A stretch of DNA of 64,000 nucleotides. Origin: a virus. Below the pieces are notes generated by a model. The model worked only from the letters and a program-made list of their open reading frames with translations, had not been told where the DNA came from and did not search any database. Location of the stretch: positions 2,925-66,924 of the IMG/VR virus record IMGVR_UViG_3300033463_000109. One strand, 5' to 3'. The translations under genes were made by a program, and so were the position numbers. Shown here in pieces: positions 43,007-56,538 of the stretch. Position 1 is the first letter of the stretch, and the number at the start of each line of letters is the position of its first letter.

Positions 43007-43013
43007 ATATTTA

Positions 43014-43090
43014 TGGTCAGGGTACCGTGACTCGAACACGGATAACTCCTCGTTCCAGGCGAGGCAGCCTACCAATTGGCCCATACCCTG
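43014..43090 (-). tRNA. tRNA, anticodon TGG (Pro-like; C33 in loop 'CCTGGAA')
   Basis: Acceptor CAGGGTA/TACCCTG. Anticodon arm 'CCTCG CCTGGAA CGAGG'. T-arm 'CCGTG TTCGAGT CACGG'. Confidence 0.5.
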
Positions 43091-43103
43091 ATATTTATTA
43101 TTC

Positions 43104-43179
43104 TGGTCCTTCTACTTGGATTTGCACCAAGACTTTGTAAGGTTTGAGCTTACCGCCTCTGCTATTGGGCTATAGAAGG
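43104..43179 (-). tRNA. tRNA, anticodon CAA (Leu anticodon but short variable arm), T-loop 'TGCAAAT'
   Basis: Acceptor CCTTCTA/TAGAAGG. Anticodon arm 'GTAAG CTCAAAC CTTAC'. Confidence 0.5.
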
Positions 43180-43184
43180 ATATT

Positions 43185-43274
43185 TGGTGGAAACGGTGAG
43201 ATTTGAACTCACACAAACCTTTCGGTTTCCAGTTTCTAAGACTGGTGCGTCTCAGCCAGTTGCGCCACGCTTCC
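43185..43274 (-). tRNA. tRNA-Leu (TAG), class II
   Basis: Anticodon arm 'CCAGT CTTAGAA ACTGG'. Long variable arm 'AAACCGAAAGGTTT'. T-arm 'GTGAG TTCAAAT CTCAC'. CCA encoded. Confidence 0.75.
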
Positions 43275-43378
43275 ATATTAAATATTGCCTCACGTCACAC
43301 TATCCCGATGCTCCCTTACCCAGGCGGTCTTTGTCATTCCTGGCACGTTCGTTGTTTACTGAGCTTTTGGCAATACTT

Positions 43379-43456
43379 TGGTCGGAGTGGAGAGATTCGA
43401 ACTCTCGATTGTATAGGGCTTAAACCTACTGCGTATGCCAGTTCCGCCACACTCCG
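43379..43456 (-). tRNA. tRNA, anticodon TAA (Leu anticodon, short variable arm)
   Basis: Acceptor CGGAGTG/CACTCCG. Anticodon arm 'GTAGG TTTAAGC CCTAT'. T-arm 'GAGAG TTCGAAT CTCTC'. Confidence 0.55.
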
Positions 43457-43461
43457 TTATC

Positions 43462-43537
43462 TGGTGCAAGCTATAGGACTCGAACCTATAATCTACGCCT
43501 TAGAAGGACGCTGCGTTATCCATTGCGCCAAGCTTGC
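43462..43537 (-). tRNA. tRNA-Arg (TCT)
   Basis: Acceptor GCAAGCT/AGCTTGC. Anticodon arm 'GCGTC CTTCTAA GGCGT'. T-arm 'ATAGG TTCGAGT CCTAT'. Confidence 0.65.
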
Positions 43538-43745
43538 ATATTTCGGAGGCCACTTAAGGAATCGAACCTACAATTACTACTAAAAAGCTTTTTACTAATA
43601 CTTACTCTATCTTGTATGCATCCAAATAAAGCAGTATATTAATAATACACTTACCATTTTAAGTCATCTTGCTGACACTTAATTGTGTTAGTATTATCCA
43701 CAATAAGCATGTGCGCCGCCTTGGCGTGTCCATATTTGTTATTAT

Positions 43746-43833
43746 TGGTGGGTCGGGTAGGATTCGAACCTACGATGTATCAGACGTCCCTGTTTTACAG
43801 ACAGGTGCCCTCGCCAGCTAGGCATACCGGCCC
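43746..43833 (-). tRNA. tRNA-Tyr (GTA), class II
   Basis: Anticodon arm 'CCTGT CTGTAAA ACAGG'. Long variable arm. T-arm 'GTAGG TTCGAAT CCTAC'. CCA encoded. Confidence 0.75.
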
Positions 43834-43855
43834 ATACGTATTTTAAGTTTCATTT

Positions 43856-43930
43856 TGGAGCACCCAGTCCGCAACGATCGGGCAACTATTGCTTACAAGG
43901 CAATTGTTTTGCCAATTAAACTATAGGTGC
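43856..43930 (-). tRNA. tRNA-Thr (TGT)-like, non-canonical T-loop
   Basis: Acceptor GCACCTA/TGGGTGC. Anticodon arm 'ATTGC CTTGTAA GCAAT'. Confidence 0.45.
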
Positions 43931-43988
43931 ATTTTTGAGTAATTAGTTTAAACAGCGTCGCCAACGTGAAGGCTTACTCAATGACGCC

Positions 43989-44061
43989 AGCTCCCGGGTC
44001 GATTTGAACGGCCGATCTGCTGTTTACAAGACAGCTGCCTTAACCGCTGGGCTACGGGAGC
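43989..44061 (-). tRNA. tRNA-Thr (TGT)
   Basis: Acceptor GCTCCCG/CGGGAGC. D-arm GCCC..GGC. Anticodon arm 'GCTGT CTTGTAA ACAGC'. CCA not encoded. Confidence 0.65.
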
Positions 44062-44169
44062 ATAAGACCTACAAAAGCAGTACTACTTTTATAGGGTTGC
44101 AGGTTACGCCAATTGGCCTGCTATTTGTCGCTTAGCAAGACTGATCAGGTCTGGACCGCGTGCGATCAC

Positions 44170-44246
44170 TGGTAGTGATGGTAAGATTCGAACTTACGAC
44201 TTCCTGTGTATCAGACAGGTACTCTAACCAACTGAGTTACACCACT
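44170..44246 (-). tRNA. tRNA-Ile (GAT)
   Basis: Anticodon arm 'CCTGT CTGATAC ACAGG'. D-arm 'ACTC AGTTGGTTA GAGT'. T-arm 'GTAAG TTCGAAT CTTAC'. CCA encoded. Confidence 0.75.
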
Positions 44247-44260
44247 ATACTTATTTTTAT

Positions 44261-44333
44261 TGGCTCCCTCCCGATGAGTTGCACATCGCTTCGCAGTTCA
44301 TGATGCTGCGAACCACCTGGTCTTCAGAGGGCA
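44261..44333 (-). tRNA. atypical tRNA-like element (T-arm 'CGATG TGCAACT CATCG', enlarged anticodon loop containing CAT)
   Basis: Starts TGG + acceptor-like 'tccctcc' + perfect T-arm hairpin. Anticodon-arm candidate 'TTCGCAG CATCATGAA CTGCGAA'. The 5' acceptor match is imperfect. Confidence 0.25.
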
Positions 44334-44337
44334 TATT

Positions 44338-44429
44338 TGGCGATGGTGGAGAGACTCGCACTCCCAATACGGCTCTGCACCGTACTAACGCTTTTCAAGA
44401 GCGTCCCCTCATCTAGCCGGATCACCACC
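44338..44429 (-). tRNA. tRNA-Ser (TGA), class II
   Basis: Acceptor GGTGGTG/CACCATC. Anticodon arm 'ACGCT CTTGAAA AGCGT'. Long variable arm. CCA encoded. Confidence 0.6.
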
Positions 44430-44463
44430 AAACTATATTTTTGTTTTTATAATAATTATTTGC

Positions 44464-44552
44464 TGGCGGAGAGTATTGTTGCTGCCACAAATAGCCTAAT
44501 GGCTACGCAACGCTTAGCAGGCGTGCTCCAGGACTGCCTGGATTTGCTCTCC
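44464..44552 (-). tRNA. tRNA-Ser (GCT), class II, T-loop 'GGCAGCA'
   Basis: Acceptor GGAGAGC/ACTCTCC. Anticodon arm 'ACGC CTGCTAA GCGT'. Long variable arm. CCA encoded. Confidence 0.5.
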
Positions 44553-44557
44553 ATATT

Positions 44558-44638
44558 TGGTGGGCAAGGCTAGAGTCGAACTAGCGAACCTCTGGTTTTT
44601 CAGACCAGCGCTCTAAACCTGATGTGAGCTACTTGCCC
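44558..44638 (-). tRNA. tRNA-Phe (GAA)
   Basis: Acceptor GGGCAAG/CTTGCCC. Anticodon arm 'CTGGT CTGAAAA ACCAG'. T-arm 'GCTAG TTCGACT CTAGC'. CCA encoded. Confidence 0.7.
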
Positions 44639-44642
44639 ATAC

Positions 44643-44717
44643 TGGTCCGCGGGACAGGAGTTGAACCTGCATCGGCGGGGTCACAATCCGCTGCACTAAC
44701 CGTTGTGCTACCCAGGG
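44643..44717 (-). tRNA. tRNA-His (GTG)
   Basis: Anticodon arm 'GCGGA TTGTGAC CCCGC'. T-arm 'GCAGG TTCAACT CCTGT'. CCA encoded. Confidence 0.65.
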
Positions 44718-44723
44718 TATATC

Positions 44724-44811
44724 TGGTGTCGGATGAAGGACTTGAACCCTCGTAAACCTTTCGGCCCCCTGGATGTAAGCCAGGTGCTCTAACCAACTGA
44801 GCTAATCCGAC
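44724..44811 (-). tRNA. tRNA-Val (TAC) with unusually long variable region
   Basis: Acceptor GTCGGAT/ATCCGAC. D-arm 'GCTC AGTTGGTTA GAGC'. Anticodon arm 'CCTGG CTTACAT CCAGG'. T-arm 'GAGGG TTCAAGT CCTTC'. CCA encoded. Confidence 0.65.
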
Positions 44812-44820
44812 ATAATTTGT

Positions 44821-44861
44821 AATAAAAAAGATGCTTGAGTTTTTTGTTTGTCCCAAGCATC
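44821..44861 (-). terminator. rho-independent terminator-like hairpin upstream of the tRNA block
   Basis: Minus sense 'GATGCTTGGGacaaacaaaaaaCTCAAGCATC' followed by T-run (plus 'aataaaaaa'). Confidence 0.4.
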
Positions 44862-45373
44862 CTATAAATCGTTTTAATTATTATATACTATAATGTATTT
44901 AACAATCCAGGTCCTGAGACATATTCTTACTACCAAAGCTAATAGGGCGTGGGAAGCAATAAGAACTAACTGATGTTCTTCCAAGCACTAAAGATAAGGT
45001 ATGTCTCCAAGATCTCATGTTCATCATTTTTTGTTTTCCTTTTGCACTTCTACGTGCACACATAATAATTTAGCGTTATGTTTTGCTTAGTTTTTTATTT
45101 TTTTCATTTTTTGTAAGTAGTGTATGCTTTTCCCCTATCACCAGCTGCAACTTTACGATAGGTCCTTTTCTAACTTCTTTTCTCACGGTGTATGCTTTAT
45201 TTAGAGTTGAGTCGCTCCTTCAACTATACGCACCGAATAGGTTAGCTCTGGCACTGGTCTATCTCTCTTTTGAGAGGCCTGTATCTCAGGCACATATTAG
45301 CTTACTATTATATTATACAGTATTTTTTTTAATTTGTAAACTATTTTTACAAACTTTTTTTATTTTTTTATTT

Positions 45374-46294
45374 TTACTTTTTATAGCAGTTCTTATAAAA
45401 ATCTGGCATATGTCTAATCAACCACTTTTTAGCACTTTGATGCGATACATTAAGTAGTCTAGATAGGTCGGCAAGCCAGCCTGGAGCATTAAAATTAATA
45501 TTGCATTTTAAAATTATCTGCTCACGTTCTTTATTTGCTATATTAGCTTGTATCTTAAAGCTATTATCTGTCTCTCTTTTTGTTTTGCCTCTTATAAAAG
45601 CATTATCAAAGTAATTAGGATAGTGCTTAATTGTATCACGCACTTGGCCCCTGGTTAACCCTGTAGTATTTTGAACAGCTTCTTGCCAACCTTGCTTACT
45701 AAAGTCTACTTTGCTATCTAATATTAAATTAAGTCGTTTAGCCCAAATTTCAGGATCAAGCACACTTATTGTGGCTCTCCCTAAGCTGTTGACTCTACCT
45801 TGCTCTATTAAAGCTTCTTTTTCAAGTTGCTTCTGCTCTCTTTTTGAAATAAACTTTTCAATGAAAGCTGAATTTATAATAGCATCTTTGATAGCTAGTA
45901 AATAACTATGCTTTTCTTTTCTATTTAAAGCTTGATAGTCTGGCCAATATACTCTACCTATACACTTCCAGCCTAGATTAGATAAATATTCTGTTCTAAC
46001 TCTGTCATGCTCTTGCATCCAAGCAAGCTTATGCTGACTGCCATCAATTTCTAAATATATTTTTTTATCTGGCCAAGCAAAATCTAAAGTATATCTGTCA
46101 ATTTGTAGTTCTTGTGCCTCAAATATTTTTTCTTTCTTTAGCCAAGCTTTAAAATATTTTTCAGGATAACTCTCTTTAGATGAATGATTTAGCTTAAATG
46201 GCACCTTGTCAGGATGTTCATTTAAGTATTTTTTTCGTGCTTCACTAATCTTTCTCTTAGTTTCTTCTGTATGTTTGCTACCGTAAGTGCCCAT
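45374..46294 (-). CDS. homing-endonuclease-like protein (NUMOD-like N-terminus + Vsr/DUF559-like endonuclease domain)
   Basis: 306 aa. 'GSKHTEETKRKISEARKK' is a NUMOD-type motif. 'YTLDFAWPDKKIYLEIDGSQH' gives the D..D....E.DG..H restriction-endonuclease-like fold. Sits between tRNA blocks. Confidence 0.5.
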   Translation of the reverse strand: MGTYGSKHTEETKRKISEARKKYLNEHPDKVPFKLNHSSKESYPEKYFKAWLKKEKIFEAQELQIDRYTLDFAWPDKKIYLEIDGSQHKLAWMQEHDRVRTEYLSNLGWKCIGRVYWPDYQALNRKEKHSYLLAIKDAIINSAFIEKFISKREQKQLEKEALIEQGRVNSLGRATISVLDPEIWAKRLNLILDSKVDFSKQGWQEAVQNTTGLTRGQVRDTIKHYPNYFDNAFIRGKTKRETDNSFKIQANIANKEREQIILKCNINFNAPGWLADLSRLLNVSHQSAKKWLIRHMPDFYKNCYKK

Positions 46295-46357
46295 ATTTTA
46301 TTTCGCTCCCTCTACTCTATATAATTTAGCAAATAAAGTTGAGAGGTTTTTACAAAA

Positions 46358-46628
46358 TGGTGCGCCTGGAGGGATTCGAACCCTCGACCCCACGATTACT
46401 TCACCACATTTTTTTCAAGTAGTGGTCCGGACTTTGTCTTAGCCATATATTACTACTTAGGCTCTCCGTGTAAAGTCTCTACACATAAGAATTTCTTCTC
46501 TTGCTCGGCGTTATCATATGCTTTACACTTAGATTTCACCGAATTAGCGGAGTGTTCATCAATAAATTTCTTTATTGAGCTTCTATTAGTCAAAAGTCGT
46601 GTGCTCTAGCCATCTGAGCTACAGACGC
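46358..46628 (-). tRNA. tRNA interrupted in the anticodon loop by a ~180-nt group I intron (anticodon probably TTT, Lys)
   Basis: 5' exon (plus 46601-46628 reverse complement) 'GCGTCTG TA GCTC AGATGGCTA GAGC A CACGA CTTT...'. 3' exon '...TAA TCGTG GGGTC GAGGG TTCGAAT CCCTC CAGGCGC A CCA'. Acceptor and anticodon stems pair perfectly across the insertion. Confidence 0.55.
46413..46596 (-). mobile_element. group I intron (compact, no ORF) within the tRNA anticodon loop
   Basis: The intron contains 'GTGTAGAGACTTTACACGG' and 'AAGACAAAGTCCGGACC'. These resemble the group I P7/R-S core elements 'CAGAGACTA' and 'AAGATATAGTCCGGACC'. Confidence 0.5.
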
Positions 46629-46632
46629 ATAT

Positions 46633-46708
46633 TGGTGGAACGCATGGGATTCCAACCCATATCTTTCGGATTAAGAGTCCGATATATTAGCAATTATACG
46701 AACGTTCC
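46633..46708 (-). tRNA. tRNA-Lys (CTT), T-loop 'TTGGAAT'
   Basis: Acceptor GGAACGT/GCGTTCC. Anticodon arm 'TCGGA CTCTTAA TCCGA'. CCA encoded. Confidence 0.6.
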
Positions 46709-46761
46709 ATATGGCCTAGCTATCATACCGCAAATTTAAAAGATTTGTGCTCTGTCGAGCT

Positions 46762-46781
46762 CGAAATAAGCATAGGCTCTA
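46762..46781 (-). repeat. conserved motif, copy 7 (between tRNA-Gln and tRNA-Lys)
   Basis: 'cgaaataagcataggctcta'. Confidence 0.45.
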
Positions 46782-46785
46782 TTTA

Positions 46786-46860
46786 TGGCGCCGGGTGAGG
46801 GACTTGAACCCCCATAAGCTGGTTCAAAGCCAGCTGAATTAACCCTTATTCTAACCCGGT
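46786..46860 (-). tRNA. tRNA-Gln (TTG)
   Basis: D-arm 'GAAT AAGGGTTA ATTC'. Anticodon arm 'GCTGG CTTTGAA CCAGC'. T-arm 'GGGGG TTCAAGT CCCTC'. CCA encoded. Confidence 0.7.
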
Positions 46861-46862
46861 AT

Positions 46863-46896
46863 AAAAAATGCACTTCCTTTTTATCAGAAGTGCACT
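46863..46896 (-). terminator. rho-independent terminator-like hairpin
   Basis: 'GCACTTCC ttttttatca GAAGTGC', followed in minus sense by T-run. Confidence 0.35.
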
Positions 46897-47054
46897 TAGC
46901 TTTCATTTTTGCTTTTATAGTTTAGCTTTCTATAAATGCGCTTCTTTCAAGGCAAGGATAACCTAAGAATACTTGAGTACTCTTTTGTTTAGGTTGTTGT
47001 TTATATTGTTTAAAAATCAACTTTGTCATCTTTGTCTTTTCCTTTATTTTTATT

Positions 47055-47130
47055 TGGCCACGCATAGAGGATTCGAACCACTGTTAGATGGCTGAGAACC
47101 ACCTGTCCTAGTCCACTAGACGAATGCGCG
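47055..47130 (-). tRNA. tRNA-Glu (CTC)
   Basis: Acceptor CGCGCAT/ATGCGTG. D-arm 'GTCT AGTGGACTA GGAC'. Anticodon arm 'GGTGG TTCTCAG CCATC'. CCA encoded. Confidence 0.6.
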
Positions 47131-47199
47131 TTATGGTCGCACCTATGATAGGGTCTGGCCGAACTGACTATCATAACTTGTACAAGTCTTTCGGTGCAA

Positions 47200-47274
47200 T
47201 GGTCACGCCTACGGGAGTTGAACCCATATTCCCACCGTGAAAGGGTGATGTCCTAACCATTAGACGAAGGCGCG
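47200..47274 (-). tRNA. tRNA-Glu (TTC)
   Basis: Acceptor CGCGCCT/AGGCGTG. D-arm 'GTCT AATGGTTA GGAC'. Anticodon arm 'TCACC CTTTCAC GGTGG'. T-arm 'ATGGG TTCAACT CCCGT'. CCA encoded. Confidence 0.65.
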
Positions 47275-48058
47275 ATATAAATTTGCCTGCTCTAAATCAA
47301 AGATAACTCTCGTTTTCTTCTATAACTCACAGACCAGCACTTGATAGCCATTTACTAGTATAGCTATCATTAAACTGAGTTTGTTCCTTATGACTCAACG
47401 TGGTCCGCATTACTAGCTCTTTCGAGTGCGTGTTGAGTTCTCTTTTAACCCCGGGCCCGAAGGATTCACCGGGGTGCGATCCCAAAAACTCCTGGGCCCA
47501 AAGGCTTCCAGAAGTGCAATCGTATTTTACTAACCTTTTGGACTAAACTTATCAGCTAGCATTTTTCAGACAGATTCAAACCCTTTATTCAGCGTTTTTT
47601 CTAACTCCTCTGCCATGCCTACTCCACTATGCTACTCCGCTTTCAGCTTTTTTGAAGCAATTTCCATTCATCTACTAAGACTTCGGTCTTGTCTGTTTGA
47701 CTACTAACTGGCCGGCGCTCACAAGCTTTAGTATTCTGCTTTTTACCTCTGCTTTAATTTAGTCTCATCCAGCAGGTTGCTATACTAATTGTTGTTGCAT
47801 TCCCTTATAGTAGGCGTTTCCTAATGTTTGACGAGCCCAACCTCGTCTGGCGCGAAATTCGCTTGCGTTCTCCTGGCTTTCTTAACCCCACTGACTTGCT
47901 TTTGCAAACATGATGCAGTACCTTGGATGGTGGAGGTTTTTTAGCTTACATGGCTTCTCTGGCCATTTGACACACTCATAATCGTGCGGACATCCCTGGC
48001 TCTACCTGAGCCGAATGACTGGTGGGACTTGCTATTGCTATCCATCTCAGTAAGCTTC
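47275..48058 (-). ncRNA. ORF-free, GC-enriched ~780-nt block between tRNA-fMet and tRNA-Glu. Candidate large structured RNA(s) or intron.
   Basis: No ORF of 60 aa or more, even when TGA is allowed. GC-rich helices such as 'ccccgggcccgaagg...caccggggtg'. Cotranscribed with the tRNAs. Confidence 0.3.
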
Positions 48059-48132
<74 letters not shown>

Positions 48133-48184
48133 AATACTTATTGAGGCTTTCTTTTTGCAGTGGCGCCTCTACCACTGTATCTTA

Positions 48185-48259
48185 TGGTTGCAGCTGTGGG
48201 GGTTGAACCCACCTGTCGAGGGTATGAGCCTCGCGAGTAATCCGCTACTCTAAGCTGCT
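48185..48259 (-). tRNA. tRNA (CAT), third CAT-anticodon species (Ile2/Met candidate)
   Basis: Acceptor AGCAGCT/AGCTGCA. Anticodon arm 'CGAGG CTCATAC CCTCG'. T-arm 'GTGGG TTCAACC CCCAC'. CCA encoded. Confidence 0.55.
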
Positions 48260-48498
48260 ATAATTTTCAATGTCTACCAGGCAAAGAATCGAACTTGCAA
48301 TAATGACTTCAGGTACCTTGCCATTATCCTTTGCTCTCAACAGAACAGCTGCACCAGCAGCACCTGGCATACGTGTAGTTTTCTTTTGCTAAAGCTACTA
48401 TCTCCAGATAGCTACGCACCACACAGCGCATCTTAAGAATCGGCAATGAGCCATACCCAGCAGGTCATTCTCAACGTCTATCTTAAACTTTTTTTCCT

Positions 48499-48575
48499 TG
48501 GAGGCTCCGGAGGGATTTGAACCCACGACACCGCGGTTAACAGCCGCGTGCTCTGACCAGCTGAGCTACGGAGCC
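48499..48575 (-). tRNA. tRNA-Asn (GTT)
   Basis: Acceptor GGCTCCG/CGGAGCC. D-arm 'GCTC AGCTGGTCA GAGC'. Anticodon arm 'CGCGG CTGTTAA CCGCG'. T-arm 'GTGGG TTCAAAT CCCTC'. CCA encoded. Confidence 0.75.
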
Positions 48576-48727
48576 ATATAAAGAGATGCTTTCCTCATGA
48601 GCTACTCACATCTCTCCGTTGCCTTGGACAAAGCCTCTGACAACTAATACGTCTTCTTTGGGTCACATTGTTAAGAGGTGCAAAAAGTCCTGTTATACTG
48701 TTTAATCTATACTACAGCTAAGATTTC

Positions 48728-48827
48728 TGGCGATCCTAAGGAGACTCGAACTCCTACAAAAGCGATTTCGTCTTCCGGCTGACAACCGGGCGTTTTAACC
48801 ATTTAAACTATAGGACCATATTAAAAA
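48728..48827 (-). tRNA. tRNA-Asp (GTC) with long variable arm
   Basis: Acceptor GGTCCTA/TAGGATC. Anticodon arm 'CCGG TTGTCAG CCGG'. Extra-arm hairpin 'GACGAAATCGC'. T-arm 'AGGAG TTCGAGT CTCCT'. CCA encoded. Confidence 0.55.
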
Positions 48828-49047: not shown

Positions 49048-49126
49048 TGGTGGAACCTGTCGGTAATGCTCCGACCTGCTTTCCGCATTGCAAGTGCGGC
49101 GACCACTCTATGCAGTCCCAGGCCCC
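49048..49126 (-). tRNA. tRNA-Ala (TGC)-like, non-canonical T-loop 'AGCATTA'. Overlaps the last codons of CDS 49108..50088.
   Basis: Acceptor GGGGCCT/AGGTTCC. Anticodon arm 'CCGCA CTTGCAA TGCGG'. T-arm 'GTCGG AGCATTA CCGAC'. CCA encoded. Confidence 0.4.
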
Positions 49127-50088
49127 ATTTTATTTAAGTATGATGGCTTATCTCTGTCGTATAGCTCAGTAAAATTGCTGCCATATACTTTTTTACAATA
49201 AGTTAAATATTTTTTTATACCATTCTTATAAATAATTTGATACTTTAAGTGCTTTGGAAAACAATCAATTTTTGCTTGAACTTGTTCTGTCCAGTAGTTT
49301 TTTATCTCTACATAAGTATCATCTATTATAAAATCTGGATAATAATTATGGTACTCACCATTATAGCTATAATTAAAACATTGTCTATTTCTTTTAACAC
49401 TAATATTATGGTCTAAACAATAAATTACATAAGCAAGCTCGTAGCTAGAATCGCACTCAATGCCTTTATATGTTCCATATTTAGCATTTCTTGTTGGATT
49501 TAGATTTCCACCATGTAGTTTGATAGCTGCAATAGTATTATTCTTTAATAACATATGCTTGCAAGCTTCACTACAAGTTTTTTTAGAACGACGCTCATAT
49601 GGTAGCTCTTTGCCGCAAATAACACAGAATTTAGGAGATAATTTATAAATTTCTCTATTTTCTATTGCTTTTTGTTTATTATCCGCTGCAGTTCCACTAG
49701 CTACTACCTTAAGTTTATCTGAAATTTTATGTTTTGTAAACGCAGATAACTTACGAGTATTAGCACAAGCTCTCGAACAAAACCTACCTGATCCAAATTT
49801 TTCGGTCATTACTTTACCACATTTTTCACAAGTATGCTTTTCAGACAACCATTTGTAGTTTGATAGCTTAATAGCATTAGCTGTTTTCATTTTACAAGTA
49901 TTACTAGAGTTTTTTCCTCTATTCTTAGCTTCTAAATCTACTTGTTCAATGGTTTTACCTTTTAATAATGCATGTATTTTACAATGGCTCTTATGTCCAT
50001 TATAACTTTGTGCATTTTCAAACTCTCTTCCACATTCACATTTATACATATTTATGCCTCTCATTATAGTATACAATAAATTTAGCAT
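49108..50088 (-). CDS. zinc-ribbon + PD-(D/E)XK-type endonuclease-like protein (possible homing endonuclease)
   Basis: 326 aa. Multiple CxxC/CxxH pairs. C-terminal 'CDSSYELAYVIY...YYPDFIIDDTYVEIK' gives a D...D/E.K nuclease motif. Two upstream 'TTGTATAATAT'-type motifs. Confidence 0.45.
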   Translation of the reverse strand: MLNLLYTIMRGINMYKCECGREFENAQSYNGHKSHCKIHALLKGKTIEQVDLEAKNRGKNSSNTCKMKTANAIKLSNYKWLSEKHTCEKCGKVMTEKFGSGRFCSRACANTRKLSAFTKHKISDKLKVVASGTAADNKQKAIENREIYKLSPKFCVICGKELPYERRSKKTCSEACKHMLLKNNTIAAIKLHGGNLNPTRNAKYGTYKGIECDSSYELAYVIYCLDHNISVKRNRQCFNYSYNGEYHNYYPDFIIDDTYVEIKNYWTEQVQAKIDCFPKHLKYQIIYKNGIKKYLTYCKKVYGSNFTELYDRDKPSYLNKMGPGTA

Positions 50089-50185: not shown

Positions 50186-50530
50186 TTATTTTTTGTTTTG
50201 TAAACTGTTTTTGCAAAAAAATATCGACTTTTTTAGGGTCGATATTATCTGCTTCTATTTTTAGGATGAAAAAGTAAATAATATCTACCCGATAGATACC
50301 TCTTGTTCTGCTTTCGCATTATCTTGATTCTTCATAATAAATATTTTTAGCATTTTCTTCCTTCGCAATAGCATTTTCGCTATGCACTATAATTTAGCGT
50401 TAATATCTAAACCATTTTTTTATTTTTTTGCTTACACTATATTATACGCTATTTTTTTCAAATTTTCAATTTTTTTGAAAAATATTTTTTATCTATTATA
50501 ATTTACTGTTATGCTACCTTGACCATTTTC

Positions 50531-51208
50531 TCAGTTAGCAGCTTTTTGCATAGCATTCCAATTAGCTTGTGAGCTTGCATAGTCAATAGTTTGCGTTGTG
50601 TTTCTCGCTGGCATAAATGCGCCTGTGCCAATGCTTTCAAGTGTGCTTGGTAGATGGAAAGTAGTCTTGCCAGTAATACTTGCAAAAGCTCCATCACAGA
50701 TATATGTATAACCTTCTGGCACATAGACATTATTGCTACCTAAGCCAAACCAAACAGATCCTAAATCTATACTTAGTGGTTGGTCTATACCTATAATTGG
50801 ATATTCAACACCATTCACTGATAAAGCTGTTGGTAAATATACTGTGCTTCCAAAGAAAGCTAAAGCACCTGAATTAGAGGTTGTAAACTCTGTTAATACT
50901 AAGTCTCCATTTTCATTTGGCTCAATAGTAATGCTTACATCGCCTCTATCATAAGTATCATTTCCATTTACTGTTACTATTTCACCTTCAACTACTTCGT
51001 CATTTACAATAACTTGGCCTGATTCATCTACAACAATTAAAGTTCCAGGTGTAACTACAGGGTCAGTGTTTTCGAATACTCAGCTTAATACTACAGTGCT
51101 TATAGTTCTATTTAGCTCAACTTGAGGCATAAAAGTCCAAGCGGCATAAGATGTCCCTATTATTAAAATAAATATAAGTACAATAATAAATGCTATACTA
51201 CGCTTCAT
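50531..51208 (-). CDS. secreted protein with SipW-cognate-type signal peptide ('SYAAWTF') and BspA-like repeat. One in-frame TGA.
   Basis: ATG 51206-08 gives 'MKRSIAFIIVLIFILIIGTSYAAWTFMPQ'. In-frame TGA near 51080-82. The C-terminal 95 aa match the track ORF 50531..50818. Confidence 0.45.
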
Positions 51209-51953
51209 ATTGAATCTGTCTTAAATAATCTAATCTTTTTTTATTTACCTTATTGAATTGATAGCTAGCGAACTCAGAATTAATTATTACAGAAGCAATA
51301 GCAATAAAAGACCATATACCTAAATATGACTTTAAGTATAAAACAAAACTACCTATACCTTCTATTTTTCTTCCAGTATAGTGATAAATAATATTATCTC
51401 TCTTAACAAGCTTTCCTGAATACTTATAATCAGAGATAGCATTAGCATCCCCTTTGAATTCATAGCCTGTAGAATATATATTAATTAATCTATGGGTGAT
51501 TATTGTATTGTTATTCTTATAGCCGTAGACTTCGCCTTCTATCAGCTCTGTTTCTTGCTCTACACGCTCAAAGATGCAGATGTCGCCTATGTTAAATTGT
51601 AGGCTATCATCATATATCTCTTCATCATAATTTTTTGACATTGAGCCCGTTTTAATAACAAGTATTGTCTTGCCATCTATTTCTAAATCTTTATTCTGCA
51701 CTTTGAATACTATTCCTGCTGTGAATAAAGCTATAACAAATGCTAACAAAATATATGAGAATATAGAAAGAAGTATTTGTAATTTTTTCTTCTTTGCTGT
51801 ATATTCTGCATATATCTCTTTGTCATGCTTACCTTGATCAACCTCAGCTTTATATGCCTTCAAGCAATAATAGTAAGCTGCTCAAGATAATACAAAAATT
51901 ATAATTGTTAGAACAATAACTACGACTATCGTAATAATCGTAATTGGATTCAT
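51198..51953 (-). CDS. signal peptidase I, SipW-like (S26 family)
   Basis: 'VIKTGSMSKNY' carries the catalytic Ser. 'GDICIF' and 'IITHRLI' carry the His. True start is ATG 51951-53 with an N-terminal TM helix, reached through in-frame TGA 51882-84. Confidence 0.55.
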
Positions 51954-51973
51954 TTCTATTCTAGTCTAACCTC

Positions 51974-52633
51974 TTATGCTACTGATACTACATTAAATGT
52001 GAAGCTAAATGTTAAGCTTAAAGCATTTACTTCTGCTTGTAATAAATTAACTTCTGCTACACTTGTTGGGATATTAGCTACTACATAGCTTGGTGCCGGC
52101 AATGTAAATGTTGTTTGAACATCTGCATTCTTTGAAGCTGAAACAACTTCTTGGTTTAAAGCTGTTGTAGCTGCAATATTTACATAAGTTCCATTTACTG
52201 CTGCTGTTGCTGTAGATGCAAATAAACCTGTATAAGTAGTAATATCAGCAATATCATTATCATCTTCATTAACTGAACCAATTAATGTCAATGTAGTGAT
52301 AGGATTTGCTCCTTGTGCATCTGTTGCCCAATAAATACCGTCCCCTGCTACTAGACCTGTTTGTCCTGAAGGTGCATCACAAATTAAGTATAATGTTGTA
52401 ACTGCATTTCCATTGCCATCTTCTACTGCTAAGCCATTAGCTTCAATAGCAGCTGTAGCTTTTCCATCAATGACAGCACTGTCTGTTGCTTGGTTTGCGA
52501 ATGTCCATGCTGCAAAGCCAACACCTAAGATGGCAATTACAGCAATTACTGTAATAACTGTCAATTTGTTTCTTAAACTCATTCTAAAATACCTCGTTTT
52601 CTTATATTTTGCAGCAATATGCCACAAACTCAA
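51974..52633 (-). CDS. TasA/camelysin-like secreted protein with SipW-cognate signal ('GFAAWTF')
   Basis: 219 aa. N-terminus 'MSLRNKLTVITVIAVIAILGVGFAAWTFANQATD'. Body is Ala/Thr/Gly-rich and beta-rich. Confidence 0.45.
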   Translation of the reverse strand: MSLWHIAAKYKKTRYFRMSLRNKLTVITVIAVIAILGVGFAAWTFANQATDSAVIDGKATAAIEANGLAVEDGNGNAVTTLYLICDAPSGQTGLVAGDGIYWATDAQGANPITTLTLIGSVNEDDNDIADITTYTGLFASTATAAVNGTYVNIAATTALNQEVVSASKNADVQTTFTLPAPSYVVANIPTSVAEVNLLQAEVNALSLTFSFTFNVVSVA

Positions 52634-52768
52634 CTTAATTTAGCCAATTTTTGCCACAAAAGTATAAAAAAATAAGCAATATATTACTATTGCTTATTAG
52701 CATAATTTAGTTTCTCCATTTCTGGATACTTAGCAGGTTTACCACGTCAAGGTATATGCTCTAAACCT

Positions 52769-52863
52769 GAGGGGCTGCAGGATTCGAACCCGCGCCACTG
52801 AGTGTGGACCTCAGTCTTTCTACGGTTTTGAGGACCGCTGTACTACCGTTATACGAAGCCCCT
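52769..52863 (-). tRNA. suppressor tRNA, anticodon UCA (reads UGA), class II (long variable arm), CCA not encoded
   Basis: Reverse complement 'AGGGGCT TC GTA TAACGGTAG TAC A GCGGT CCTCAAA ACCGT AGAAAGACTGAGGTCCACACTCAGTGGC GCGGG TTCGAAT CCTGC AGCCCCT C'. Perfect 7-bp acceptor. Anticodon 34-36 = TCA, with C33 instead of the usual U33. Confidence 0.6.
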
Positions 52864-52951
52864 ATTTTATTATACATTATACATTAAGTTTTTTTAGTTC
52901 TCTTGGTTAATTTGCTTACTTAGCTTTCGGTGCTTGCCTATGGGCTTATAA

Positions 52952-53161
52952 TTAGCCCAAAAGCACCTTTTGGCCATCAGTTAGCTTATCTATTTGCTTA
53001 TAATCATCTGGGCTTATAAAGAAGTTATGTCCATTGACTAAACAAACCTTGTAATTATTTAAAGCTTCGTCTTTTGCTTCCATAATTTGTATATAAGCTA
53101 TATGATCTAAAAATAGGTCTAACTTTTCACCTGTTGTAGTAATTAGTTTATATTTTTGCAT
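52952..53161 (-). CDS. hypothetical small protein
   Basis: 69-aa ORF. Confidence 0.25.
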   Translation of the reverse strand: MQKYKLITTTGEKLDLFLDHIAYIQIMEAKDEALNNYKVCLVNGHNFFISPDDYKQIDKLTDGQKVLLG

Positions 53162-53615
53162 ATGCTGGTTCCTTTTCGACTGAAATATGATTTAGCACAA
53201 TTTGGTCTTGCAATAAATGTAGCAAAGCAGACAAGTTGTCTTTTGCAGATTCAACTTCTCTGACTGTTTTATTAACATTACGTACTAATTTTAGCAATTT
53301 ATTATAACCATCTTTAACTAAATCATCTGAAATTTTAATATCTTTTTCTGTAATAAACTTATATAAAGCTGTAATATTATTGAAGATCATTGTAAGCATT
53401 ATTTTATCATCTAACATTCTTGTGCTGGCTGAATAACCAAAGCTATCTGCTAATTCATTAGCTATTTTTGTAGCTTGCTTAAGGTCTAAAGTTGTATGTC
53501 TAATATCAAACTTTAATTCAGCTAATACTGGGTTAAATAAAGCTGCCACTTCGCTGCTATCTGAGAAGTTTAGTCCCTCTAATGTTAAACTGTAATCTAA
53601 TGCTGTCAATGTCAT
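53148..53615 (-). CDS. hypothetical protein
   Basis: 155-aa ORF. Promoter motif upstream at ~53646. Confidence 0.35.
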   Translation of the reverse strand: MTLTALDYSLTLEGLNFSDSSEVAALFNPVLAELKFDIRHTTLDLKQATKIANELADSFGYSASTRMLDDKIMLTMIFNNITALYKFITEKDIKISDDLVKDGYNKLLKLVRNVNKTVREVESAKDNLSALLHLLQDQIVLNHISVEKEPAYAKI

Positions 53616-53658: not shown

Positions 53659-54387
53659 TTATTGTTTATTATTTTTTAATTGTCTTTTTTGCTTTCTTTC
53701 TGTTGCTGTATCAACTGTGACTCTATGAATGTTTTGTATCTTTGACAAGCCACCCTTTTTTATAAAGTTTATTAAAGAAATTGGTGTATAGTCTATATGC
53801 TCTGCACAGACATTCAAATGATGTACTGTATCTTTAGTTTCTATATTTGCATGGTCATGTCCATGAATATTAAACATATAATCTGGCACAGCTATTGGCT
53901 CATGTGATAAGATAATTCTATCATTTATCATCAGTGGGCCTTCATAGACCTCATCAAATAAGCCATTATCTATCTTTTTAACCTTCATATACTTGGTATA
54001 TACTTCCATAAGCTTTTCTTCAAGCTTTGCTGGCTCTAAGTTGTATAAGTCAGCTGGGTCAGTTATATCCATTGTGTTAAAAGTAGCTACTTCAGTTATT
54101 TTTCGCTTGTAATTAGAAGCTCCTTTTTCATGATTTCCCATTATAAGCACTTTATAACCTGCTTTAATATACTTTACAAAGCTTGGATTCCCAATGTCGC
54201 CTAAACATACAAAAGTATCATTCTTGCTTACTTTTGCATTTATTCTTGCAACCTGTTCAGCATCAACTATATACTTATCTCCTCTTAGCTTAACCATTTC
54301 TGGGTCGGCGAAGTGCGGATCGCTGTATAAATATATATTTCCACCTGGTTTTTTCCAAGCTTTTTCAAATATCTCGTATAGAAACAT
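53659..54387 (-). CDS. calcineurin-like metallophosphoesterase
   Basis: 242 aa with 'CLGDIGNP', 'IMGNHE', 'GHDH'. Confidence 0.55.
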   Translation of the reverse strand: MFLYEIFEKAWKKPGGNIYLYSDPHFADPEMVKLRGDKYIVDAEQVARINAKVSKNDTFVCLGDIGNPSFVKYIKAGYKVLIMGNHEKGASNYKRKITEVATFNTMDITDPADLYNLEPAKLEEKLMEVYTKYMKVKKIDNGLFDEVYEGPLMINDRIILSHEPIAVPDYMFNIHGHDHANIETKDTVHHLNVCAEHIDYTPISLINFIKKGGLSKIQNIHRVTVDTATERKQKRQLKNNKQ

Positions 54388-54785
54388 TACATATCCTCTA
54401 ATCTTTCTTCTAAGCTGTCTGCAATTACTTTTGAATCTGCTAGCGCTTTTGCAAGTGCTTTTTGTAGCTTTTCAACTTCTTTAATAGCATTATATACTTC
54501 AGTATTAAAGTTTCTTTGCGCTAATAACTCAGCTTTAATTCTAGCTATCGTTTCACCTTTCTTAGCATCAAAAGTATCCTTAGGGTCTACTTTAGCTACA
54601 CCCTTAGTTTGATAATCCTCAAAATAAGGATCATTCTCATATTTAATAAAATTGATAATAGCTCTATTTGCTTTCCAAGCTTGGGTAGTTAAATCTGTTC
54701 CGGCTTTGATATATGCCTTTTGCTTAACAATTGTTGTTGTGCCATTTATAATTGGCTCTTCTTTCTTATATTTTAAGTAATTCAT
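54387..54785 (-). CDS. hypothetical protein
   Basis: 132-aa ORF. Confidence 0.3.
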   Translation of the reverse strand: MNYLKYKKEEPIINGTTTIVKQKAYIKAGTDLTTQAWKANRAIINFIKYENDPYFEDYQTKGVAKVDPKDTFDAKKGETIARIKAELLAQRNFNTEVYNAIKEVEKLQKALAKALADSKVIADSLEERLEDM

Positions 54786-54813
54786 TTTATACCTCTTGCC
54801 TTATGGCAACACC

Positions 54814-55890
54814 CTAAGGTGTTACCATAATTGTTGCTGATCCATCTGTCACAAGGGTTGTAGGTAATTCACCGTCCCAAGTCTCATAGTAGATGATTTG
54901 TTCTAATAGCTCAGCCATAAGCTTCTTATCTTCGGCAGTATCATATGTAATTGTATATGATGTTACCAAACCGTCTTCATCAAGTGTTGTTGTCATGTCT
55001 AAGTCTAATGCTTGTGCAATTTCAATAGCTTTATATCTTAGCTCAATAGCAACAGCCTTTGCTGCTTCTGCTTTAGCTTTCTTGTCTGCTTCAGCTTCAA
55101 TTAGCTTCTTTTCAGCTTGCTTCTTAGCTACTTCTACTTCAACTTCTGCTGCTCTTTGCTTAGCTTCAGCTTCTGCCTTTGCTTTAGCAATAGCTTGTTC
55201 GTTTTCATAGTCAGCTTGTAATTTCTTTTGTTCTGCAATCATCTTGTCTTCTACAGCTTTCTCAAATTGGTCTGTAAAGTCAATATTAGTTACTACAACT
55301 GTCGTGATAGTTACATAATAATCTGGCGTAATTGTAGCTCTAATTGTATCTGAAATAAGTGGTGACATAGTGCTTCTGTTAGCAATAATATCCATAGCTT
55401 TATATGCTGATAATACAGACTTTGTTTTTTCAATAGATACACTTTGAAGCTTATTTTCAAGTGCTGCTACATCACCATATTGATTTATAATATCAATTAG
55501 ATTTTCTTGATTCAAGTGATATTGAATAGTCATTGTAATATCCATCGTTTGAGCATCATTTGAATAAGTCATCGTCTCAATATCGATAGTTCTTACCTTC
55601 ATATCATACTTTTCAACTTTGTTTGTCATCCAGAAGTTAGCATATGTTCCAGATGCTTTAATTTCTTTAGCAACACCTAAGTCCTTAATAACTGCTGCTT
55701 CACCTGCTTGCACAGTGTAGAAGTTCCAAGGCACTAAAATAAATGCTACTAAACAAGCTAATGTAATAATTGTAATAATACCATCAGCTTTTGTCCAATC
55801 TTCATCGTTAACTCTACGCACAATACCTGCAATAAGTCCACCGATAAATAATAGGCCGAATAATACTGCTAATAAAACTCTAAAAACCAT
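54814..55890 (-). CDS. SPFH/band-7 (prohibitin/HflC-like) membrane protein
   Basis: 358 aa. N-terminal TM, SPFH core, Ala/Lys/Glu-rich coiled coil 'AKAKAEAEAKQRAAEVEVEVAKKQAEKK'. Confidence 0.55.
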   Translation of the reverse strand: MVFRVLLAVLFGLLFIGGLIAGIVRRVNDEDWTKADGIITIITLACLVAFILVPWNFYTVQAGEAAVIKDLGVAKEIKASGTYANFWMTNKVEKYDMKVRTIDIETMTYSNDAQTMDITMTIQYHLNQENLIDIINQYGDVAALENKLQSVSIEKTKSVLSAYKAMDIIANRSTMSPLISDTIRATITPDYYVTITTVVVTNIDFTDQFEKAVEDKMIAEQKKLQADYENEQAIAKAKAEAEAKQRAAEVEVEVAKKQAEKKLIEAEADKKAKAEAAKAVAIELRYKAIEIAQALDLDMTTTLDEDGLVTSYTITYDTAEDKKLMAELLEQIIYYETWDGELPTTLVTDGSATIMVTP

Positions 55891-56076
55891 TATTGATTAT
55901 CTCCTTCGTTTGTCTTATAATATTCCTTTAATGTTTTAACTAAAAGTTCGTCTTCTACAAAAAATGGATCTGGGTAAGGGTTTGAAATAAGTTGCCCTAA
56001 TCTAAAGTCAGGATATTTTTCCCATACTTTTCTAATCTCGTCTAAAATAACTGGTATTCTATTTGGATCTCTCATC

Positions 56077-56538
56077 TTATACCTCTCTTCTTATATATTC
56101 TCTTACTTCCATTAAAGCTTTGCCTAATAGATTAGTTCCATTTACTTGACTTACATCTGTTGAGCCAATGCCCCAGATTTTATCATATGGGCTTGCTTCA
56201 TAAAGCTCAGCATCGCCTGTGCCTAGTAACACACTTGCAATGCTTGGATTTTGCATAAACTTATCCTTTAAGATGTCAACCATAATTCTGTATCTTAAAG
56301 CTGCCCATTGCTCATCAATATAGCCTTTAACCTCGCGGCCTAAAGCTTTAATTTCATTTTGTCTTTGTGTTTGCATAATCTTAGCCATTGTTTCTGTATC
56401 GCCAAATAGCTTAGCTTTATGCCACATTAGTGCTTGCTCAGATGATATAAAATAATGACCTTCGTGCATAAATTCACTTATATACCAATTTGAAAAAGCA
56501 CCATATGTATCTGTTATTTTCCAAAAACCTATTTTCAT
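56077..56538 (-). CDS. NADAR (YbiA-like) domain protein
   Basis: 153 aa. 'FSNWYISEFMHEGHYFISSEQALMWHKAKLFGD' matches the NADAR/DUF1768 core. Confidence 0.5.
   Translation of the reverse strand: MKIGFWKITDTYGAFSNWYISEFMHEGHYFISSEQALMWHKAKLFGDTETMAKIMQTQRQNEIKALGREVKGYIDEQWAALRYRIMVDILKDKFMQNPSIASVLLGTGDAELYEASPYDKIWGIGSTDVSQVNGTNLLGKALMEVREYIRREV

Follow-up and report, generated by a model that had tools for sequence, protein, structure and literature searches.

A few bacterial biofilm systems are known to use a dedicated signal peptidase of the SipW type that acts on cognate substrates of its own; in the sipW-bsaA matrix operon of Clostridium perfringens and in the TIGR04089 and TIGR04090 operons of Firmicutes and Actinobacteria, a SipW-like peptidase is accompanied by neighbouring substrates carrying a family-specific signal. 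The presence of a comparable gene arrangement in a phage raises the question of what a virus might do with a secretion enzyme of its own. The window analysed here, i.e., the whole stretch of 64,000 nucleotides taken from IMG/VR record IMGVR_UViG_3300033463_000109, carries on its minus strand three co-oriented genes transcribed in the order C, B, A, among which B encodes the predicted peptidase. A sequence-only reading of this DNA had described them as a phage-borne, probably late-expressed set of a SipW-like peptidase, a TasA/camelysin-like protein and an LRR protein. All the peptidase and signal-peptide strings that it quoted are found on the minus strand; its SipW-like peptidase, cognate-looking signal, LRR domain, phage setting and late-class TGA codons hold up, whereas the TasA/camelysin label, the TIGR04088 signal and the virion appendage that it also put forward do not. 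It overlooked the copies of the trio on bacterial contigs, the c-di-GMP riboswitch of relatives and the suppressor tRNA beside the operon. Our best explanation, to which as a whole we give a probability of roughly two in three, is that the trio forms a three-gene operon (C-B-A) on a large tailed phage, that B cleaves both C and A, and that the two products make up a surface structure on the host cell. No report of the trio was found in the literature and no source names the proteins.

The trio in its phage setting

That the element is phage-borne is confirmed by the gene content of the window, which encodes a holin, DnaB/DnaC and a thymidylate synthase, together with about 29 tRNAs and TGA recoding, and by the occurrence of relatives on IMG/VR contigs of 115-232 kb. 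The source is a large gut or rumen phage in which TGA stands for tryptophan. A DNA similarity search against GenBank phages gave no match, the sole match of the protein search was one unannotated faecal phage fragment (30% identity), and PHROGs holds a family neither for B nor for C. The leader between the upstream tRNA and gene C (52583..52768, minus strand), read directly from the sequence, contains an AT-rich hairpin with a T-run behind it (AAGCAATA..TATTGCTT TTTTTTT), two copies of TTGTGGCA (52620..52627 and 52652..52659) and, for gene C, a GAGG ribosome-binding site. Two candidate control elements, TTGTGGCA as a phage-wide late promoter and a sigma-54-like TGGCA-N6-TTGCA motif, were rejected, neither being enriched in the window, and a promoter/terminator consensus scan around the operon returned matches no more numerous than in shuffled sequence.

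Gene B encodes a SipW/Sec11-type protein

Gene B (51198..51953, minus strand; 251 aa) matches two NCBIfam peptidase models, SipW (E 1.2e-11, 44.6 bits, below the curated cutoff of 190) and TIGR02228, the archaeal-type signal peptidase I (E 1.9e-9, 37.6 bits, below the cutoff of 51.85). Both models are matched by all 28 homologues of B, with best E-values of 6.9e-16 for SipW and 4.6e-15 for the archaeal type, and the homologue from a Christensenellales-labelled contig (L017) lies above the TIGR02228 cutoff with 53.3 bits. The window protein contains VIKTGSMSKNY and NTIITHRLINIY, and residues S104, M105, T153, H154, R155, L156, G168, D169 and N171 are invariant in the alignment of 28 sequences. 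Ser104 in GSMS (codon 51642..51644, minus strand) is the predicted nucleophile and His154 in ITHRL (51492..51494, minus strand) the predicted general base, a role that His also has in SipW and Sec11, while Asp169 (51447..51449, minus strand) sits in a G-D-x-N box that reads KGDANAISD in the window protein and aligns with KGDNN of SEC11A; likewise, the counterpart of the THRL segment in human SEC11A is IVHRV, with His and not Lys in the box. Matches to the two models and invariant catalytic residues thus bear out the SipW-like S26 assignment of the sequence-only reading, and B is a SipW/Sec11-type (S26B) protein with predicted peptidase activity. An S24 enzyme of the LexA/UmuD kind, the alternative named at the time, does not fit: SipW and archaeal signal peptidase I are the sole peptidase models matched and the protein has three hydrophobic segments. 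The Pfam scan of B gave neither an S24 nor an S26 match at E<=1.

Hydropathy peaks at residues 1-32, 56-87 and ~206-229, and the layout comprises TM1 (~1-23), a K-rich loop (~24-58), TM2 (~59-83), the catalytic region (~84-200) and TM3 (~203-228). From hydropathy and the distribution of Lys and Arg, the catalytic domain is predicted to lie outside the membrane, and the K-rich loop 24-58 as well as the K/R-rich C-tail in the cytoplasm; the loop is conserved as Y-K-x-E-V-x-x-G-K-H-D-x-E-I. With SipW of Bacillus subtilis B shares the Ser/His catalytic pattern GSM...THR, but it has in addition an N-terminal transmembrane helix and the conserved cytoplasmic loop. With the Sec11/archaeal-type signal peptidase I (TIGR02228; MEROPS S26B; SEC11A, PDB 7p2p) it shares the catalytic boxes, the alignment covering both HR and GDNN; unlike these enzymes, it has three transmembrane helices instead of one or two, and it appears to be reserved for the two substrates encoded next to it, with no housekeeping role.

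Genes C and A share a predicted signal peptide

Gene C (51974..52582, minus strand) encodes an exported beta-sandwich protein of 202 aa from an unannotated family, beginning with MSLRNKLTVITVIAVIAILGVGFAAWTFANQ. Its start had been placed at TTG 52633 and is corrected here to ATG 52582, the start common to all homologues. The search for homologues found 107, and in a set of 1.84 billion representative proteins the family makes up 82 clusters. The predicted signal peptide spans residues 1-24 (52511..52582, minus strand) and consists of an n-region MSLRNK, a hydrophobic core of 13 residues and a c-region GVGFA; according to the -3/-1 rule, the cut would fall between A24 and A25 and leave AWTF as the mature N-terminus. 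Conservation in the family is highest over the first 30 residues: among 59 members G20 is found in 100%, G22, A24 and W26 in 95% and F28 in 92%. What follows AWTF is a variable stretch and not a conserved donor strand. On the other side of B, gene A (50489..51208, minus strand; 239 aa) begins with MKRSIAFIIVLIFILIIGTSYAAWTFMPQ, and its start overlaps the end of the peptidase gene by 11 nt, an overlap that is retained in relatives. Its signal peptide, predicted from the A-family alignment and from hhalign against the C family, covers residues 1-22 (51143..51208, minus strand), and a cut at A22/A23 would again expose AWTF.

The signal common to both proteins ends G-x-[GS]-[FY]-A/A-W-T-F, the slash marking the predicted cut. 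When the A and C family profiles are compared, their first 58 columns align (probability 93.6%, E 2.2e-7). When all six frames of the 64 kb window were translated with code 4, a loose pattern of the motif gave seven matches, two of which stand behind an N-terminal hydrophobic segment; these two are the genes flanking B, and no other window proteins have it. The sharing is beyond chance, and the matching signal peptides seen by the sequence-only reading are real, their predicted cleavage-site region being nearly invariant in relatives. Their assignment to the TIGR04088 type is not sustained: the N-terminus of A scores 10.9 bits (E 0.41) against a cutoff of 19 bits, and the model does not match the N-termini of C and five relatives. 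The trio also differs from sipW-bsaA and the TIGR04089/TIGR04090 families, whose NCBIfam substrate models match neither C nor A.

One may ask whether these N-termini are removed at all. C and A might stay uncleaved, with their N-termini as permanent anchors and G-x-G-F-A-A-W-T-F as an interfacial or partner-binding element, in which case B would be a general auxiliary peptidase that strengthens or redirects secretion by the host. W and F/Y are indeed typical at membrane interfaces, the core and motif together span ~22 residues, and the motif stays under the TIGR04088 cutoff. However, both proteins, and their families at large, have small residues at -1 and -3 (A and G/S), which is what a signal peptidase I needs, and the peptidase is always sandwiched by exactly these two, bacterial contigs included; a general peptidase would not need to be inherited together with C and A, which speaks against such a role. 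We hold permanent anchoring to be improbable and favour cleavage of both proteins by B.

Gene C has no match to TasA

The label TasA/camelysin-like, given to C in the sequence-only reading, fails and was rejected: the AF2 model of C (pLDDT 82.6) is a beta-sandwich unlike TasA in sequence and in fold, and family and fold searches with C gave no match. The peptidase lies between two exported proteins as in tapA-sipW-tasA of Bacillus subtilis, and the signal has the TasA style, i.e., a glycine-rich c-region and alanines at -1 and +1 that are flanked by aromatic residues at -2 and +2. Both features could be taken to make C a divergent branch of the TasA/camelysin family (peptidase M73) and the operon a true homologue of tapA-sipW-tasA, a possibility that C, with neither sequence nor fold similarity to TasA/CalY, makes extremely unlikely. 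C has no detectable relative of known function, and its context suggests that it may be a structural subunit.

In plan the two operons are alike: both have three genes, with an ER/archaeal-type peptidase between two exported proteins bearing a specialised signal, and in both the sequence is conserved around and after the cut site. In contrast to tapA-sipW-tasA, the phage substrates are unrelated to TasA and TapA in sequence and fold, their signal stays under the TIGR04088 cutoff, one of them has an LRR adhesin domain, and this copy is phage-borne with TGA sense codons. Mature TasA begins at residue 28, and with one further residue at its N-terminus it no longer forms fibres (10.1101/188995); this need for an exact N-terminus offers a rationale for the conserved residues after the predicted cut in C and A. 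Directly after that cut, both AF2 models are of low confidence.

Gene A carries a BspA-type LRR domain

In the product of gene A, the signal peptide is joined to an N-terminal extension with the conserved pattern V-x-V-x-x-W-x-F, and the rest is made up of a small beta domain plus an LRR domain of the BspA type. The LRR protein announced by the sequence-only reading is confirmed by the A family profile, which matches the LRR cell-surface protein 4gt6_A with an E-value of 2.8e-24, and by precomputed PF13306 matches in 7 of the 13 A homologues; the window protein itself scores 23 bits (E 8e-5) with PF13306 (LRR_5), whose cutoff is 27.7. With the family profile, the C-terminal half also matches 4fs7 (E 6.7e-12) and TpLRR 6mlx (E 2e-3). 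The AF2 model (pLDDT 82.9) was built from P0228, a near-identical database protein lacking the signal. From BspA-type LRR proteins A differs in its small size (239 aa), its few repeats and its fusion to an N-terminal module specific to the trio. In relatives the third gene keeps this N-terminal module while the C-terminal domain is swapped, and in other phages the place of the LRR is taken by an unrelated module of 312-329 aa. The idea that the LRR domain of A was copied from the phage's own tail-fibre LRR proteins, which would have favoured receptor masking, was discarded, the similarity being at motif level only (best E 0.2).

TGA recoding suggests late expression of genes A and B

Immediately upstream of gene C lies a tRNA (52769..52863, minus strand; Rfam tRNA model 49.1 bits, E 2.2e-9) with anticodon UCA, which reads UGA, and a long variable arm. 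It folds as a cloverleaf with anticodon loop CCUCAAA and is a candidate TGA suppressor; the ARAGORN run did not report it. As the sequence-only reading stated, two of the three genes need readthrough of TGA, B having one such codon, A two and C none. Codon 24 of B (51882..51884, minus strand) falls in a column that is Trp in >90% of homologues, and at least three of the Trp-bearing homologues (P0046, P0089 and the L017 peptidase) are encoded without an in-frame TGA. Codon 43 of A (51080..51082, minus strand) corresponds to W43, invariant in the A family. Codon 226 of A (50531..50533, minus strand) had been taken for the end of the gene; it is read through, since at this place homologues carry Y or W and go on with ENGQGSITINYN to their own stops, and the stop of A is TAA 50489..50491. 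TGA at conserved Trp positions and a tRNA with UCA anticodon are both found in the window phage, as code 4 (TGA=Trp) implies.

Out of 41 in-frame TGA codons, 37 lie in the late block 13849..32549, three in A and B and one in a small ORF, and the remaining ~50 window genes have none. The late block is the tail-fibre block, in which LRR_5-like proteins are also present. The near confinement of TGA sense codons to this block and the trio agrees with the late class assigned earlier, and codon usage suggests that the trio is probably expressed late. In standard-code relatives the trio is free of TGA, and in two others (L010, L013) the Trp of the motif (S-A-W) is itself a TGA codon. Phages of the Agate, Jade and Sapphire clades read TGA as Trp, encode a suppressor tRNA, confine recoding to late structural and lysis modules and have standard-code close relatives (Borges et al., 10.1101/2021.08.26.457843). 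The window phage resembles them in these traits and in coming from cattle or other gut samples, a likeness of traits and not a clade placement; that paper mentions a peptidase 0 times.

The trio is shared by phages and bacterial contigs

All 13 related loci whose flanking sequence is long enough contain the C-B-A trio; in L021 and L022 it is present in rearranged order. It also occurs on contigs with ordinary bacterial genes, from MAGs labelled Christensenellales and Bacilli, and on two higher-GC contigs with Firmicutes-type genes. In L017 the trio adjoins nusG-rplKAJL, and in L015 it lies between PAP2 and ABC transporter/DinB genes; L021 and L022 are further cases of bacterial-type contigs. 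On such contigs the 12-17 kb examined around the trio contain no phage genes. Of 11 related loci that were scanned, five (L007, L010, L013, L015 and L018) have a c-di-GMP-I riboswitch (RF01051; 47-59 bits, cutoff 35) directly upstream of the C-like gene. The Rfam scan of window positions 52400..53200 detected neither a c-di-GMP nor any other riboswitch at E<=10, the leaders of L004 and L012 gave no match to another riboswitch class, and the riboswitch-less leaders, once aligned, show little conservation. Given its bacterial copies and the riboswitch of its relatives, the trio therefore looks like a bacterial surface-protein module common to phages and bacteria.

This distribution bears on the proposal that the products are virion appendages or decorations matured by a dedicated peptidase. 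TGA codons do link A and B with the structural class of genes, and LRR_5-like proteins are encoded in the tail-fibre block too, but the trio stands apart from the structural block, and Sec-type signals along with an outward-facing protease would put the products outside the cytoplasm, the compartment in which tailed virions assemble. As the same trio occurs on bacterial-type contigs devoid of phage genes over the distance examined, we consider a virion appendage very unlikely.

A different purpose would be superinfection exclusion or receptor masking, A binding the host receptor, or C and A replacing a homologous structure of the host, such that released or competing phages could not adsorb to infected cells or debris. 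The binding domain of the third gene differs between phages in the manner of receptor-binding proteins, the homologous trios of bacteria could themselves be receptors, and expression appears late; yet the phage's own LRR tail proteins are not close relatives of the LRR domain of A (best E 0.2), and masking seems to us an improbable purpose. It concerns what the module is for and not how it works, and it is compatible with our best explanation, in which an adhesin-bearing structure on the infected cell is the most likely purpose.

Discussion

From these comparisons we infer that both proteins are cut, and where, that they assemble at the cell surface, when they are expressed and what the phage would gain. 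B would act as a membrane-embedded serine protease with Ser104, His154 and Asp169, its catalytic domain facing outward. The host Sec pathway would export C and A by virtue of their near-identical, family-specific signal peptides, and B would cleave both between the alanines of the shared motif, giving mature proteins that start with A-W-T-F and continue with a flexible extension. C may be a small, abundant beta-sandwich component and A the carrier of a binding domain, here of the BspA-type LRR kind; the most likely outcome is a structure on the outside of the infected Firmicutes cell that the two proteins build or decorate, and they would not be virion parts. In the five riboswitch-bearing relatives the trio would be controlled by the c-di-GMP-I riboswitch. 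In the window phage, which lacks the riboswitch, translation of B and A would depend on the suppressor tRNA encoded upstream, and the module would be tied to the late, recoded phase.

It is tempting to go further, although the following scenario is speculative and, taken as a whole, rather unlikely. The trio might encode a new extracellular filament or adhesive layer of gut and rumen Firmicutes, with C as subunit and A as tip or side adhesin, both docking through their conserved N-terminal extensions once the peptidase has exposed A-W-T-F. Jumbo phages would have captured it, sometimes along with its riboswitch, and here it would have been rewired to the code switch, making infected cells sticky before lysis. 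If true, such stickiness would hold the progeny near new hosts or on the plant-fibre surface.

The trio extends the logic of SipW peptidases to two new substrate families, and is conserved across many large uncultivated phages; it is also found on bacterial-type contigs assigned to poorly studied gut and rumen Firmicutes. Its signal-peptide motif is new and could be used as bait for further substrates. Between the relatives and the window phage, it provides a natural case in which control of an operon may have passed from a second-messenger riboswitch to dependence on a suppressor tRNA, and it offers a testable example of a phage that would export adhesin-like proteins from the infected cell.

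Gene layout and identity of the peptidase

The trio is made up of C (51974..52582, 202 aa), the peptidase gene B (51198..51953, 251 aa) and A, all in one orientation on the minus strand of the window. A starts at 51208, so that its first 11 nt overlap the end of B, and ends at a TAA at 50489. The strings quoted in the sequence-only reading were correct: 'VIKTGSMSKNY' and 'NTIITHRLINIY' are both found in B, and AAWTF-type signals open both C (MSLRNK, 13 hydrophobic residues, GVGFAAWTF) and A (MKRS, 13 hydrophobic residues, GTSYAAWTF). Two of its gene boundaries were wrong. C had been started at TTG 52633 instead of the ATG common to all homologues, and A had been stopped at TGA 50531..50533, where homologues have Y or W and then run on with ENGQGSITINYN, so that the gene extends to the TAA.

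Our profile searches assign B to the SipW/Sec11-type peptidases. The NCBIfam models for SipW (E 1.2e-11) and for archaeal-type signal peptidase I (E 1.9e-9) both match B below their curated cutoffs; both are matched by all 28 diverse B homologues (best 6.9e-16 and 4.6e-15, respectively), and the copy on a contig labelled Christensenellales passes the cutoff of the archaeal-type model, TIGR02228. A Pfam scan of B returned no S24 or S26 match, and no clustering with S24 peptidases was seen, the eventuality that the sequence-only reading had raised against itself. Ser104, Met105, Thr153-His154-Arg155-Leu156, Gly168-Asp169 and Asn171 are invariant in the B alignment, and human SEC11A can be aligned over the His and GDNN boxes. 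Hydropathy indicates three membrane segments, and K-rich stretches before the second and after the third predict a catalytic domain placed outside the membrane. B differs from SipW, which is without its extra N-terminal helix and its conserved loop Y-K-x-E-V-x-x-G-K-H-D-x-E-I; since both are also present in the copies on bacterial contigs, they are a trait of the B family.

Two probably exported neighbours with a conserved signal

C and A look like dedicated substrates of B, as judged from conservation and gene order. All related loci with sufficient flanking sequence have the order C-B-A (L004/5, L007, L010-L018 and L020), and two further loci, L021 and L022, have the trio in a different gene order with two C-like paralogues. 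Among the window proteins, C and A are the only ones with the motif behind an N-terminal hydrophobic segment. The 59 members compared of the C family share about 40-70% identity elsewhere and are best conserved in their first 30 residues (G20 100%; G22, A24 and W26 95%; F28 92%), with a hydrophobic core of constant length. Ordinary signal peptides show the reverse, and the pattern resembles that of sorting signals. Position -1 is Ala or Ser and position -3 is Gly, Ser or Thr, which fits the signal peptidase I rule if the cut precedes A-W-T-F. The A and C family profiles align over their first 58 columns (probability 93.6%). The third gene of the trio is modular, with a BspA-type leucine-rich repeat (LRR) domain in the window phage and L012 and an unrelated domain of 312-329 aa elsewhere; its N-terminal module G-T-T-Y-S-A-W-x-F ... 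V-x-V-x-x-W-x-F is retained throughout. AF2 modelled C with pLDDT 82.6 and signal-less A with 82.9, both models being of low confidence over the roughly 20 residues that follow the predicted cut. The shared signal, the co-occurrence of the trio and the LRR profile match bear out the proposal of two cognate substrates, with an LRR protein among them; cleavage of both proteins by B is what we infer.

C and A are two unannotated substrate families. The C-terminal half of A is a BspA-type LRR domain (family profile against the cell-surface protein 4gt6_A, E 2.8e-24). C is predicted to fold as a beta-sandwich with one helix and has no match in Pfam, NCBIfam or PHROGs; its family is small (82 clusters among 1.84 billion representatives), and its members, where named by their source at all, are 'hypothetical protein'. 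The earlier label 'TasA/camelysin-like' found no support, as the C profile retrieved no TasA from PDB sequences at E<=10, Foldseek of C against PDB and BFVD found nothing, and the SipW-cognate signal model TIGR04088 was not matched. The trio resembles tapA-sipW-tasA in its operon logic and the style of its signals rather than through homologous substrates.

TGA recoding and a candidate suppressor tRNA beside the trio

The codon evidence establishes TGA as a sense codon in the window: no gene uses it as a stop, and translation with TGA read as Trp (code 4) yields 41 in-frame TGA codons. Ten genes of the minus-strand block 13849..32549, which encode tail-fibre-like, LRR and repeat proteins, hold 37 of them, A and B three, and a 50-aa ORF (36078..36230) the last; about 50 other window genes have none in the same count. 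Gene 25796..27703 (minus strand), for a 635-aa repeat protein of this late block, has 22 in-frame TGA against 17 TGG, and its TGA codons fall repeatedly on the Trp positions of 'TSTWSxKTW...IWSDGDNIYYS' repeats, a striking internal confirmation, at codon level, of TGA read as Trp. These repeats look propeller-like. The single TGA of B, codon 24, falls in a column that is Trp in >90% of the 28 homologues, at least three of which (P0046, P0089 and the L017 peptidase) are encoded without in-frame TGA; the first TGA of A, codon 43, falls on an invariant Trp of its family, and in relatives L010 and L013 the signal-motif Trp is itself a TGA codon.

Directly upstream of C lies a UCA-anticodon tRNA (52769..52863, minus strand) with a cloverleaf fold, found by Rfam though missed by ARAGORN. 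Its variable arm is long (25 nt), making it type II, like Ser, Leu, Tyr or Sec tRNAs, and its discriminator position is, by eye, C. The tRNA is type II, yet the TGA positions align with Trp.

Large TGA-recoded gut phages recode late genes (10.1101/2021.08.26.457843), and the TGA pattern of the window matches this published picture. Late expression of the trio, as first proposed, is probable, A and B sharing TGA sense codons almost only with the late tail-fibre-like block.

Phage context

The window is phage DNA, with nearly all genes on one strand and with DnaB- and DnaC-like, thymidylate synthase and holin genes, and the description of B as a phage-borne SipW-like peptidase stands. ARAGORN found 26 tRNAs and Rfam three more; all 26 and two of the latter, Phe-GAA (44561..44638) and Gly-GCC (42772..42842), form an array at 39641..48817 (minus strand), broken up by protein genes at 39767..41734 (655 aa) and 45374..46294 (306 aa) and followed by a cysteine-rich, zinc-finger-like 326-aa gene (49108..50088). 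Relatives of B occur on IMG/VR contigs of 115-232 kb and on metagenome contigs of 64-224 kb, dense with tRNAs and carrying a tmRNA. In related phage contigs a tmRNA lies near the trio (L004 7518-7898, L007 6640-7019, L013 7834-8239); L010 has a ROOL RNA (250-843, 196 bits), and L004 and L007 have about 40 tRNA matches each within 21 kb.

Upstream of the trio, 53659..56538 (minus strand) encodes a metallophosphoesterase, a Band_7/SPFH membrane protein (358 aa) and a NADAR-domain protein, in the same arrangement in the near-identical contigs L001 and L002. The holin (phrog_6918 and phrog_608) and a second membrane protein (12632..12961 and 12983..13438, minus strand) adjoin the edge of the recoded late block, with no TGA in either. 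A 675-aa protein without family match (3661..5688, minus strand) has a lipoprotein-type signal (…LLVCMATCLISC) and is probably another phage protein exported to the host envelope.

Counterparts on bacterial-type contigs and a riboswitch in relatives

The trio is also found on contigs with ordinary bacterial genes, on which the 12-17 kb examined showed no phage genes. In a MAG labelled Christensenellales (L017, 1..12777, from a contig of 205 kb) it follows nusG-rplK-rplA-(L10 leader)-rplJ-rplL and a rubrerythrin gene; in a rumen MAG labelled Bacilli (L015) it has acyltransferase/PAP2 genes on one side and an ABC transporter and DinB on the other. Two higher-GC contigs carry SpoIIE and Fe-hydrogenase genes, with a 920-aa third protein and the peptidase placed last (L022), or RecX, SufC-like and SufBD genes (L021). 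This distribution suggests a module that arose in bacteria and that phages share. A virion appendage matured by its own peptidase, as also suggested at the outset, is unlikely, given these homologous trios on bacterial contigs and the export signals of C and A.

In five relatives the C-like gene is immediately preceded by a c-di-GMP-I riboswitch aptamer, which scores 47-59 bits where the cutoff is 35. These are the phage-type loci L007 (9132-9209), L010 (5315-5390) and L013 (5197-5271), the bacterial-type contig L015 (5196-5268), and L018 (5202-5280). Three of the loci have a hairpin and U-run after the aptamer, and L010 has an RBS-pairing segment there. No such aptamer was found in the window, L004, L011, L012 or L017; in the window the suppressor tRNA sits where the riboswitch stands in relatives. 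Firmicutes c-di-GMP riboswitches control flagella, pili, adhesins and surface proteases, targets that fit a cell-surface role for the trio. The C leader of the window holds two TTGTGGCA copies (52620..52627 and 52652..52659, minus strand), and the riboswitch-less leaders of the bacterial contigs L017 and L014 read TTGTGGCAAC-TTTG-TTGCAC, which fits the sigma-54 -24/-12 spacing (TGGCA-N6-TTGCA). The leader motif is not enriched elsewhere in the window.

Proposed function

We propose that B would insert in the host membrane and trim C and A, exported by Sec, to mature proteins starting A-W-T-F, which would remain at the surface of the infected cell or close to it, A providing the binding specificity. 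C may polymerise, and A may dock on C through its conserved N-terminal strand. In the window phage, translation of B and A would need the TGA suppressor, which would tie their production to the late, recoded phase.

We came across no previous description of a phage module of this kind. The system is of a known kind, a SipW-type peptidase with cognate substrates, here with two unannotated substrate families; to what was first noted we add the trios on bacterial contigs, the riboswitch of relatives and the candidate suppressor tRNA beside C. For the phage, adhesion of infected cells, receptor masking or exclusion are possible gains.
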